Assembly (NCBI GenBank): GCA_001781465.1
Contig: MFLD01000043.1
Coordinates: 767-54,248, forward strand
Length of the DNA: 53,482 nucleotides
Origin: Candidatus Kaiserbacteria bacterium RIFCSPHIGHO2_02_FULL_49_16
GTDB taxonomy: Bacteria > Patescibacteriota > Minisyncoccia > Phycocordibacterales > UBA2100
Reading direction: 5' to 3'
Shown: in pieces, positions 3,106-40,549 of the stretch
How positions within the stretch are numbered: position 1 is the stretch's first letter
How the letters are laid out: every line of letters begins with the position of its first letter
Notes under the pieces: generated by a model
Seen by the model: the letters and a program-made list of their open reading frames with translations, nothing else
Databases searched by the model: none
Told to the model about the DNA's origin: nothing
Made by a program: the position numbers and the translations under genes

Positions 3106-3141
3106 ATCTATTCCAGTCTTTTGCAAAAGATTGGAATAGAT
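3106..3141. repeat. Palindromic hairpin family 2 copy (ATCTATTCCAGTCTTTTGCAAAAGATTGGAATAGAT)
   Basis: 16 bp stem with one G-T pair. A paralogous perfect copy lies at 5028-5063. Confidence 0.7.
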
Positions 3142-4962: not shown

Positions 4963-5027
4963 GTATTTTACGGCTCAGACCCCCCGTCTGAGCCGTTAGA
5001 ATTTAGAGTTTGATCTCTCTCCCTGCA

Positions 5028-5063
5028 ATCTATTCTAGTATTTTGCAAAATACTAGAATAGAT
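5028..5063. terminator. Perfect palindromic hairpin (family 2) between the convergent argF and pdxT genes
   Basis: ATCTATTCTAGTATTTTGCAAAATACTAGAATAGAT is a 36 nt perfect palindrome located between two stop codons. Confidence 0.6.
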
Positions 5064-5073
5064 TTGGTATTCC

Positions 5074-7556: not shown

Positions 7557-7565
7557 CATCGCGAA

Positions 7566-7607
7566 TTTCCTTATGGGCTAATTCGCACGAATTAGCCCAT
7601 AAGGAAA
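7566..7607. repeat. Palindromic hairpin family 1 copy
   Basis: TTTCCTTATGGGCTAATTCG-CA-CGAATTAGCCCATAAGGAAA has 20 bp perfect arms. A paralogue lies at 13062-13101. Confidence 0.75.
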
Positions 7608-7620
7608 TTGGAAAAGCGTT

Positions 7621-13061: not shown

Positions 13062-13101
13062 TTCCTTATGCGCTAATTCGCGCGAATTAGCGCATAAGGA
13101 A
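13062..13101. repeat. Palindromic hairpin family 1 copy
   Basis: TTCCTTATGCGCTAATTCGCGCGAATTAGCGCATAAGGAA is a 40 nt perfect palindrome. It differs from 7566-7607 by paired changes in both arms. Confidence 0.75.
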
Positions 13102-13467: not shown

Positions 13468-14742
13468 ATGAAGATATTAGGTATAGAAACAAGTTGCGAC
13501 GAGTCCGCCGTGTGTTTAATTGAAGCGCGAGGAAATTTTGATAAAGATTTTCATTTTCAGATACTCGGAAATTCTCTCATTTCTCAAATTGCGATACACG
13601 CGCAGTATGGCGGCGTATTTCCTAATCTGGCAAAAAGAGAACACGCCAAAAATCTCGTCCCTTTACTTGAACAAACGCTCCTACAATCCGTGACTTCTTG
13701 TCAAGGCGACGCCTTGCCAAAAAAAATTCCAGAGGAGTTGCAAATCCTACTTGCGAGAGAGCGGGCATTATATGAAAAGCTCACCGTTTTTCTTCACAAA
13801 TACGGGAAGCCGGAAATCGATTCTATCGCCGTAACCATCGGCCCCGGCCTTGAACCGGCCTTGTGGGTCGGCGTTAATTTCGCGCGCGCGCTAGCACTGG
13901 TGTGGAATGTTCCGATAATCGCTGTCAATCATATGGAAGGCCATCTTATACTCTCTATGATGGAAATTCAGCCGCATCCAAACTATTCTCAAATTCTCAA
14001 GAATTTGAGAATAGAAGGAAGCATGCGTAGAATTCAGTTTCCGATGCTTGCGCTTTTGATATCCGGAGGACACACGGAATTGGTTCTTTCTGAACGATGG
14101 CAACAATACAAAATCCTAGGTGCCACGCGCGATGATGCTGTGGGTGAAGCTTTTGACAAGGTCGCGCGCTTGCTTGGGCTTCCATATCCGGGCGGTCCTC
14201 AAATTTCTGCGTTAGCGAAATTTGCGCGGAACGACGCAGACTTGACGCAGAAAAACGCAGAAAAAATCAAGCTCCCCCGTCCCATGTTGAATAGTGGCGA
14301 CTTGGATTTCTCCTTTGCGGGCTTAAAAACTGCAGTTCGCAGACTCATTGAATCCGAAGGTCTGACCTTATTAAGGTCCGACCTTGAGACCCCTTTAAGG
14401 TCGGACATTGAATCGGACCTTGACGCATTCAGAATGCAGGTTGCCAGAGAATTTGAAGATGCCGTCACGGATGTGTTAGTCGGAAAAACAATGAAGGCCG
14501 TTGATGAATACGGAATTCAAACGGTAGTAGTCGGAGGCGGAGTTTCCGCAAACTCGTACATCCGCCTTCTCCTTGCCGAAGCTTTAGCGAAGGCGGGTTT
14601 GCCTCCTCCCCTAGTACCCGCTCCAGGACTTGCTACTGACAATGCGCTAATGATCGCGCTCGCGGGATATTTTCGCGCGCTCAATAAAGAGTTTGCCGAC
14701 CCATCTGAATTGCGTGCAAACGGCAATCTGAAACTCGTCTGA
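13468..14742 (+). CDS. tsaD: tRNA N6-adenosine threonylcarbamoyltransferase TsaD, with two insertions
   Basis: MKILGIETSCDESAV, NHMEGH and LLISGGHTEL motifs. At 424 aa it is longer than the roughly 340 aa I recall as typical for TsaD, because of insertions at 13983-14014 and about 14347-14425. Confidence 0.88.
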   Translation: MKILGIETSCDESAVCLIEARGNFDKDFHFQILGNSLISQIAIHAQYGGVFPNLAKREHAKNLVPLLEQTLLQSVTSCQGDALPKKIPEELQILLARERALYEKLTVFLHKYGKPEIDSIAVTIGPGLEPALWVGVNFARALALVWNVPIIAVNHMEGHLILSMMEIQPHPNYSQILKNLRIEGSMRRIQFPMLALLISGGHTELVLSERWQQYKILGATRDDAVGEAFDKVARLLGLPYPGGPQISALAKFARNDADLTQKNAEKIKLPRPMLNSGDLDFSFAGLKTAVRRLIESEGLTLLRSDLETPLRSDIESDLDAFRMQVAREFEDAVTDVLVGKTMKAVDEYGIQTVVVGGGVSANSYIRLLLAEALAKAGLPPPLVPAPGLATDNALMIALAGYFRALNKEFADPSELRANGNLKLV

Positions 14743-27302: not shown

Positions 27303-27346
27303 CATATAACGCTAGCTTGTGCGGCCGCACAAGCTAGCGTTATATG
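27303..27346. repeat. 44 bp perfect palindrome with a GCGGCCGC centre
   Basis: CATATAACGCTAGCTTGTGCGGCCGCACAAGCTAGCGTTATATG. Its right half recurs at 27882-27897. Confidence 0.8.
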
Positions 27347-40501: not shown

Positions 40502-40549
40502 AATGACAATACGATAGATGTACATATGTACATCTATCGTATTGTCATT
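40502..40549. repeat. 48 bp perfect AT-rich palindrome
   Basis: AATGACAATACGATAGATGTACAT|ATGTACATCTATCGTATTGTCATT, located between the secF stop and the tyrA-pheA start. Confidence 0.85.

Follow-up and report, generated by a model that had tools for sequence, protein, structure and literature searches.

A perfect palindrome translated within tsaD of a Kaiserbacteria genome belongs to dispersed repeats linked to ArsR-like genes

Rickettsia is the textbook case of a curious phenomenon, palindromic DNA that lies in frame in essential genes. How did a perfect 32-nt palindrome come to lie in frame within tsaD of a member of the Patescibacteria, and from what kind of DNA does it derive? The palindrome is found in a stretch of 53,482 nt from Candidatus Kaiserbacteria bacterium RIFCSPHIGHO2_02_FULL_49_16 (assembly GCA_001781465.1, contig MFLD01000043.1, positions 767 to 54,248 of the forward strand), hereafter the window; coordinates without a contig name refer to it. 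The original prediction, made from the letters of the window, was that a member of an intergenic hairpin family has colonised this essential gene with the frame intact, and the alignment of homologues, an AlphaFold model and a census of the genome all support it. Our preferred reading, to which we assign a probability of roughly 0.7, is that the tsaD palindrome is a stray copy of a copy-and-paste palindrome of the regulator-site type, passively translated as a flexible loop. The gene and the segments on which the argument turns are the following.

13468–14742, + strand: tsaD, encoding the tRNA t6A37 threonylcarbamoyltransferase subunit, intact, 424 aa (Pfam PF00814, E = 1.4e-70; PDB TsaD chains, E = 5e-65)
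13983–14014, no strand: perfect palindrome in tsaD with 15-bp arms and centre CA, reading CTATTCTCAAATTCT-CA-AGAATTTGAGAATAG
13966–14013, + strand: inserted segment, approximate, 16 codons I167–I182 (IQPHPNYSQILKNLRI) relative to a 34-aa baseline loop, with borders uncertain by a few codons

The gene is present once in the 905-kb, 46-contig source genome (G000; one match), and the catalytic residues H155, H159 and D391 of its product occupy invariant columns in the homologue alignment. The sequence, the open reading frame (ORF) and the Pfam match confirm the perfect palindrome in frame, and the peptide is the one that had been given for it. The stem had been described as 14 bp with a TCAA loop; the palindrome stands, with the correction that its arms are strictly 15 bp and its centre 2 nt. 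At its core lies a 13-2-13 site, ATTCTCAAATTCT-CA-AGAATTTGAGAAT. The peptide encoded by the palindrome is N172-YSQILKNLRI-E183, from one of its two stop-free frames. The predicted RNA fold reaches -19.4 kcal/mol (z = -6.6 versus shuffles), and we calculate that chance would give about 5e-4 such palindromes in 53 kb. Because the 131 bases around the site are identical in three other, independent ENA assemblies, the palindrome is a real sequence and not an assembly artefact. An Rfam scan of the window returned only tRNAs and 5S rRNA, the palindromes being covered by no Rfam family. A 7-nt repeat, AATTCAG, occurs on both sides of the insert and is judged compatible with chance.

The distance between the NHMEGH and SGGHT motifs indicates that the segment is an insertion. 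Among 97 close TsaD homologues (55–73% identity), this distance is 34 aa in 20 and 49–51 aa in 28, the window protein with its 50 aa, and thus 16 extra residues, being one of the latter. Loops of 34 aa that lack the insertion occur here and there in the clade, also in congeners, and the loops in other families of the order measure 30–38 aa, except for five with unrelated inserts (41–54 aa). Compared with TsaD of E. coli and Salmonella, 19–20 residues of the window protein between HMEGH and SGGHT are unmatched; the spacing in E. coli is 20 aa and not 12–15 aa, as had been stated. The insertion of 16 residues relative to the 34-aa baseline is therefore confirmed by the very alignment of orthologues that had been proposed as a check. 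The structure points in the same direction. In an AlphaFold2 model built with 104 aligned homologues (mean predicted local distance difference test score, pLDDT, 88.4; predicted template modelling score 0.88), the palindrome-encoded residues 171–180 have a mean pLDDT of 60 versus 87–89 in the flanks, as expected for a loop excursion in a confident model.

The palindrome belongs to a dispersed family, here called ATTC, of 13-2-13 palindromes with the general form ATTCYNNNNTTYT-NN-ARAANNNNRGAAT. The pattern ATTCN5TTYTNNARAAN5GAAT has 24 matches in the source genome and fits the tsaD copy as well as the two intergenic hairpins of the window that had been proposed as its relatives. Both relatives are real, one with a mismatch and one perfect, and a palindrome of a sister family lies upstream of tsaD.

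3106–3141, no strand: ATTC member, intergenic, 18-bp arms with 1 mismatch; a gene starts about 36 nt downstream
5027–5064, no strand: ATTC member, intergenic, 19-bp perfect arms, between convergent genes
13062–13101, no strand: 40-bp perfect palindrome of the sister family with centre TTCGCGCGAA, intergenic, upstream of tsaD

Across the genus, the TsaD loop is a recurrent insertion hotspot. Palindromes of the ATTC family occupy it in 33 of the 97 homologues, every time in the same frame, with peptides such as HSNILQNVRM, HSNILENVGM, YSSILQNTRI and similar ones. Seven homologues contain an unrelated palindrome, AATCCCGATACTTC...GAAGTATCGGGATT, and others hold a third palindrome or tandem repeats, which brings the kinds of palindrome or other repeats at this position to at least three. 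A tree of TsaD was computed after masking the loop; its well-supported branches require the ‘ATTC’ label to have changed at least 13 times, with 35 changes for all labels, and the three nearest relatives of the window protein each have a different element in the loop. Relatives with similar extra residues encode them by perfect or decaying palindromes of the same family, where non-palindromic DNA would have spoken against an insertion. At the DNA level these copies form a decay series: they are perfect in the window, L004 and P0004, have one mismatch in L005 and P0039, and are clearly decayed in L009, L012 and L006. In-gene copies would arrive perfect and then decay or be lost. P0039 and P0113, which share 86% DNA identity, differ by a 45-nt indel exactly at the tsaD insert site. 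A search of genome contigs for related loci gave four, the closest with 68% identity and none of them a strain-level empty site, and a search of 5.8 billion proteins returned nothing between 69% identity and the window's own TsaD cluster.

The insert also travels with its gene. The tsaD sequences of P0004 (L085) and P0024 (L086) are 100% identical over their first and last thirds, versus only 45–86% across the central ~600 nt. The loop block of P0004 is 91–95% identical to the window, versus 55–80% elsewhere in the gene. These blocks of identity show that the insert-bearing segment moved between lineages by homologous recombination. Consequently, tsaD, which often serves as a phylogenetic marker gene, is a clear intragenic recombination mosaic around the insert. 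The palindrome of P0004 has the same arms as that of the window and the centre TG instead of CA, which makes it the exact reverse complement. Either the palindrome flipped around its arms, or a copy in the opposite orientation took its place.

How common are such palindromes in the genome? Counting perfect palindromes with a stem of at least 12, we found 179 in G000 versus none in each of five dinucleotide shuffles. The majority (115) are intergenic, 24 straddle gene ends and 40 lie inside predicted coding sequences (CDS). With 87% of the genome called coding, this corresponds to a depletion of about 20-fold in genes relative to intergenic DNA. The genome search that had been suggested thus finds the family where it was expected, mainly between genes and with a minority in frame in other housekeeping genes. 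Grouped by centre, the palindromes fall into TTTTGCAAAA, TTCT-NN-AGAA, TTCGCGCGAA, CGCTATAGCG, TGTACATATGTACA and other groups. The units are 28–48 bp long and often perfectly symmetric around a free centre of 2–4 nt, and identical copies are found at unrelated loci within the genome. Their density is highest between convergent genes, where no promoter lies. A role as terminators only or promoters only was considered and rejected, since the palindromes are found in convergent, divergent and tandem spacers alike. The window also contains long perfect intergenic palindromes of other families, with 20–24-bp arms and no loop, at 40502–40549, 27303–27346, 7564–7609 and 13062–13101.

About 15 palindromes are in frame in housekeeping genes, DHFR, Dus, UvrC and YggS among them. 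The ATTC copies in frame outside tsaD are as follows.

Formyltransferase: ATTC copy, read YSSILQNTRI
Dihydroorotase-like gene: ATTC copy, read YASVLQNTSI
VIT-family membrane protein: ATTC copy, read HSNILQNVRM
PGA_cap protein: ATTC copy, read HTNILEYVGM
Dus: sibling that differs from the tsaD copy by one mismatch and uses the alternative open frame, read LFSNSQEFKNR

The TTCGCGCGAA family is in frame in DHFR, M50 peptidase, YggS and UvrC. The DHFR insert of 23 aa is absent in all 19 relatives examined. The dihydroorotase-like insert is missing in most relatives, and the same site is filled in genome G011, where the insert is of the variant also present in G011's own tsaD, unlike both variants of G000. 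At these two loci, the only ones compared in this way, copies within a genome are thus more alike than copies at orthologous sites, suggesting recent copying or conversion. Three of the in-frame cases, namely, tsaD, DHFR and the dihydroorotase-like gene, are lineage-specific insertions, and in-frame palindromes account for length differences between orthologues of TsaD, DHFR and Dus. A perfect palindrome gives the same peptide from either strand, so that peptide searches can match the wrong one; YASVLQNTSI is found in both orientations (e.g. G000 C7:2200-2229), and spurious antisense ORFs share the motif.

Beyond this genome, the ATTC pattern is present in 45 of 101 genomes of the genus, with 0–33 copies each, and in 42 of 155 sampled genera of the order; the reversed pattern, used as a control, has essentially no matches. 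Identical 28-mers, the tsaD arms included, are shared by families whose TsaD proteins are only ~50% identical. Patchy, bursty copy numbers together with near-identical sequences in distant hosts are the typical signature of DNA that is mobile or exchanged horizontally.

A candidate partner for these repeats comes from pairs of ATTC palindromes about 300 nt apart, which recur in many genomes. In G000, palindrome pairs enclose a gene of ~95 aa for a winged-helix protein of the ArsR family, assigned by HTH_5 (PF01022) above the cut-off and with ArsR, HlyU, AspA, CadC and SmtB as relatives in the PDB. This 0.9-Mb genome has at least eight ArsR-like paralogues. Palindromes flank at least six of these, and the subfamily differs from paralogue to paralogue.

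C36:20736-21087: ArsR-like cassette, subfamily ATTCTAGTATTTTG
C16:4876-5434: ArsR-like cassette, subfamily ATTCCAGTGTTTTG
C21:6546-6928: ArsR-like cassette, subfamily ATTCCAACATTCTG
C6:21168-21552: ArsR-like cassette, subfamily TTATTTGTTAATTCA
C15:4842-5259: ArsR-like cassette, subfamily GCTTATTCGCGCGAATAAGC
C22:1600-2010: ArsR-like cassette with the gene at C22:1657-1929, tsaD-type palindrome

The site upstream of the C22 gene reads ATGCTTAAATTCT-TG-AGAATTTGAGAATAG, its right arm being exactly the tsaD arm, and a different family of the order also has an ArsR-like gene that is preceded by a tsaD-type palindrome. The cassette layout is kept in most of 12 genomes of the genus. The upstream palindrome is located 20–50 nt before the start codon (320–347 nt before the stop) in 11 of the 12, as well as in several G000 paralogues, and a -10-like hexamer lies downstream of it in C36 and C22. 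In eight of the 12, the gene ends in a second palindrome, which supplies its final nine codons and stop, ILVFCK(I/T)LE-stop; this peptide is the third reading frame of the palindrome. The neighbours of the cassettes, as read from sequence, are mutually unrelated (acetyltransferase-like, SGNH-hydrolase-like, RsmI-like and riboflavin-synthase-like), indicating that the cassette relocates. The palindromes at 13062 and 7564 of the window belong to the TTCGCGCGAA / AATTCG-CA-CGAATT group, and the C15 paralogue is bracketed by the 13062 type.

The association holds across the 101 genus genomes. Where the ATTC pattern is present, the ArsR-like gene is present in 33 genomes and absent in 12; where the pattern is absent, the corresponding numbers are 9 and 47 (odds ratio 14.4, p = 5.5e-9). 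Copy numbers of the two are correlated (Spearman 0.67), and the gene is found in 11 of the 12 genomes with five or more ATTC copies. ArsR/SmtB-family repressors such as SmtB, CzrA, CadC and HlyU are autoregulated and bind 12-2-12 inverted-repeat operators. The ATTC family has a comparable geometry, with a conserved 13-2-13 core and a variable 2-nt centre, and its cassette copies are in promoter position, the tsaD copy itself being intragenic. Since the palindromes bracket ArsR-like genes, at the promoter region and in the last codons, both in G000 and in relatives across the order, such a dimeric protein most likely recognises them. The pairing of each subfamily with a paralogue of its own and the co-occurrence of the two across the genus speak indirectly for specific binding. 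The family is thus probably a protein recognition site and not just a hairpin.

Taken together, these observations suggest the following course of events. A solo 13-2-13 copy entered the TsaD loop that connects the HMEGH helix with the SGGHT strand, either by insertion or through homologous recombination. There, one of its stop-free frames adds ~16 residues, which are translated and probably tolerated as a flexible excursion. The family as a whole would be copy-and-paste, largely selfish DNA filtered by selection, dense between genes and surviving within genes only in frame, stop-free and in tolerant loops. Copies probably spread by copy-and-paste and, in addition, when gene segments that contain an insert undergo homologous recombination. 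The perfect arms and the flipped centre could be accounted for by copying from a fold-back or hairpin template, or by copies recombining with each other. Indeed, perfect arms with a free centre, arms that exceed a protein footprint and the flipped centre together suggest a hairpin or fold-back in copying or repair. If so, regulator-site-like selfish DNA reshapes essential proteins in this genome.

Several points weigh against this reading. We found neither a target-site duplication nor fixed element ends, and no transposase linked to the palindromes; local divergence blurs the borders of the indels. The filled and empty sites of P0039 and P0113 are too diverged at the junction, and no target-site duplication is visible there. 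The gene calls behind the census come from a simple home-made ORF scorer. The association with ArsR-like genes is partly built in, as two of the sites come with every cassette, and genomes that are related do not count as independent observations. Many palindromes extend symmetrically, with arms up to 24 bp, beyond the contact of a winged-helix dimer, so that binding alone is insufficient to explain the perfect symmetry. Finally, the same site and frame in 33 of the 97 TsaD homologues could be explained by selection for function within tsaD, and function could also explain the arms kept perfectly between the lineages of the window and P0004.

In one alternative, the palindrome is a functional intragenic site, where the cognate ArsR-like dimer would bind in tsaD as a transcriptional roadblock or at a chromosome-organising site, with the loop as its price; parS sites, for comparison, lie inside genes. 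Besides the recurrence in a constant frame, such a role would fit the identity of the arms of the window and P0004 while their surroundings differ, the presence of a cognate ArsR-like paralogue in the genome and the resemblance of the 13-2-13 geometry to the 12-2-12 operators. A functional site is harder to reconcile with the decayed copies at the same position in L009, L012 and L006, with an empty position in 20 of the 97 homologues and unrelated repeats in others, with in-frame copies in functionally unrelated genes, and with the peak of palindrome density between convergent genes, away from promoters. We therefore regard this explanation as unlikely. It is very improbable that there was no insertion, that is, that the loop is native to the TsaD clade and the palindrome arose by local template switching, by chance or as an assembly artefact. 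Half of the close TsaD homologues do have long loops, and the left arm of the Dus copy overlaps native-looking GNPFLF codons. However, 34-aa loops are scattered within the clade and outgroup loops measure 30–38 aa, unrelated loci and further families of the order share the 28-nt core, shuffled genomes have no such palindromes, and the identity of the other three assemblies argues against an artefact.

A further alternative is a repetitive extragenic palindrome (REP) moved as single-stranded DNA by a REP-associated tyrosine transposase (RAYT) or an IS200-type Y1 transposase. Y1_Tnp (PF01797) is encoded by five genes of the genome, and palindromes flank every one of them, a layout that resembles REPtrons.

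C39:1828-2514: RAYT-like Y1 (HUH) transposase gene
C11:181-915 and C11:1317-2051: RAYT-like Y1 (HUH) transposase genes, tandem duplicate
C32:10645-11355: RAYT-like Y1 (HUH) transposase gene
C7:38252-38914: RAYT-like Y1 (HUH) transposase gene

The products of these genes are 220–245 aa long, and the two C11 genes also contain short palindromes of their own, besides being flanked by them. Y1_Tnp is present in 93 of the 101 genus genomes, and a hairpin intermediate would suit the perfect arms and free centre. However, the palindromes at the Y1 genes come from other families (cores CAAGGTGNCACCTTG, CCAAGGACNGTCCTTGG and CAACACYSRGTGTTG), ATTC and Y1 copy numbers are nearly uncorrelated across the genus (rho 0.18, p 0.07), and some genomes have 9–13 ATTC copies with 0–1 Y1 genes. 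The ends of the ATTC copies have no consistent GTAG or CGTC tag either; as judged by eye, CGTC adjoins two of the 24. Transposition by these enzymes is thus quite unlikely for the ATTC family. A bolder version of the preferred reading, in which the palindrome is a copied regulator site, can be proposed tentatively, and we find it more doubtful than not. The ArsR-like gene and its palindrome would form a self-propagating ‘repressor plus binding site’ element, the gene being bracketed by its own predicted site. Perfect, flip-flopping dyads would multiply, also into essential genes, adding loops and possibly roadblock control, and pairs of paralogue and site would diversify together, giving a genome-wide, fast-evolving regulatory and structural layer in Patescibacteria.

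Which known systems come closest? Searching a library of papers for palindromic or ArsR-linked repeats in Patescibacteria/Parcubacteria, we found no description, and the nearest published kinds are Rickettsia palindromic elements (RPEs) and REPs. RPEs (Ogata et al. 2000) are described in PMC10969869 as palindromic repeats of ~100–150 bp found in frame in Rickettsia genes; they are imperfect palindromes of ten Rickettsia-specific families. The repeats studied here resemble them in being dispersed, in lying both between genes and in frame in unrelated housekeeping genes (tsaD, Dus, DHFR, YggS, UvrC and the M50 peptidase, formyltransferase, VIT and PGA_cap genes), in encoding a tolerated peptide and in residing in a reduced genome. 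They differ in their size of 28–48 bp, often perfect symmetry, free 2–4-nt centre and patescibacterial host, and every subfamily is associated with a small ArsR-like gene of its own. To our knowledge, no comparable gene link exists for RPEs. The Rickettsia precedent that had been invoked is therefore apt as to behaviour, while size and host exclude membership.

In REPtrons, RAYT genes are flanked by cognate REPs, which have a GTAG or CGTC tag at one end (PMC3733652). Similarities include palindromes of 20–40 bp in many, mostly extragenic copies, several families each with a gene paralogue, and a small gene bracketed by copies of a dispersed palindrome. By contrast, the gene bracketed by ATTC palindromes is not a RAYT gene but encodes a winged-helix protein of the ArsR family, without a nuclease or HUH domain; the ATTC arms are perfect and lack the tag, in-frame genic copies are common, and the real RAYT-like genes of the host genome carry other palindromes. 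In comparison with miniature inverted-repeat transposable elements, the whole unit is one palindrome, and we found no consistent flanking direct repeat, no parent insertion sequence and no sequence pair close enough to fix the borders. The ArsR-like protein shares with ArsR/SmtB repressors a predicted dimeric winged-helix fold of ~90–100 aa and a dyad, here 13-2-13, over its own promoter region. It differs in that a second copy of the site lies within the last nine codons and stop, that dozens of solo copies exist, some inside essential genes, and that the cassette is found in unrelated gene contexts with no metal-efflux partner gene nearby. Coding palindromes of up to 284 bp are found in mitochondrial genes of Nematomorpha (PMC6649704), and sponge and fungal mitochondria hold hairpin elements (PMC2800124). 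These, too, are perfect inverted repeats in coding genes with both arms translated, presumed to be selfish hairpins, but they belong to organelle genomes. We know of no DNA-binding gene associated with them.

What is new here is that, as far as sequence comparison can tell, the in-gene palindromes belong to the families of the ArsR cassettes. RPE-like behaviour thereby extends to ultra-small Patescibacteria, with much shorter and perfectly symmetric units. The link with ArsR-like genes suggests that the binding sites of a regulator can spread in the manner of mobile DNA and enter even coding sequence. Protein-DNA binding, roadblock effects and loop tolerance are the handles it offers on how tiny genomes acquire regulatory sites and protein loops. 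These repeats are relevant for annotation and alignment of proteins from the candidate phyla radiation and for phylogenies inferred from marker genes such as tsaD.

The tsaD gene of the window has acquired repeat DNA at another position as well.

14350–14425, + strand: second independent in-frame insertion in tsaD (LTLLRSDLETPLRSDIESDL), codons ~295–320, built of AAGGTCNGACCTT mini-palindromes of another dispersed family

This insertion is missing from all 29 relatives aligned. It is read as LRSDL repeats, and residues 301–320 have a mean pLDDT of 54–65; in the model, both inserts thus leave an otherwise confident TsaD fold as segments of low confidence. The CCAAGGTCNGACCTTGG family has 11 copies in the genome versus 0.8 expected; seven lie in CDS, where (P/L)RSDL is the usual translation. 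Two strain variants of the window TsaD differ by a single amino acid (I/L), which falls within the second insertion, and the variant of the other strain turns the third repeat into a perfect palindrome. Compared with E. coli TsaD, the window protein also has a largely helical insertion of ~40 residues (13690–13810, residues ~76–115), which follows the first long helix and precedes the GPG strand. This helical insertion is common to most relatives in the order and is thus a feature of the clade and not a repeat insertion.

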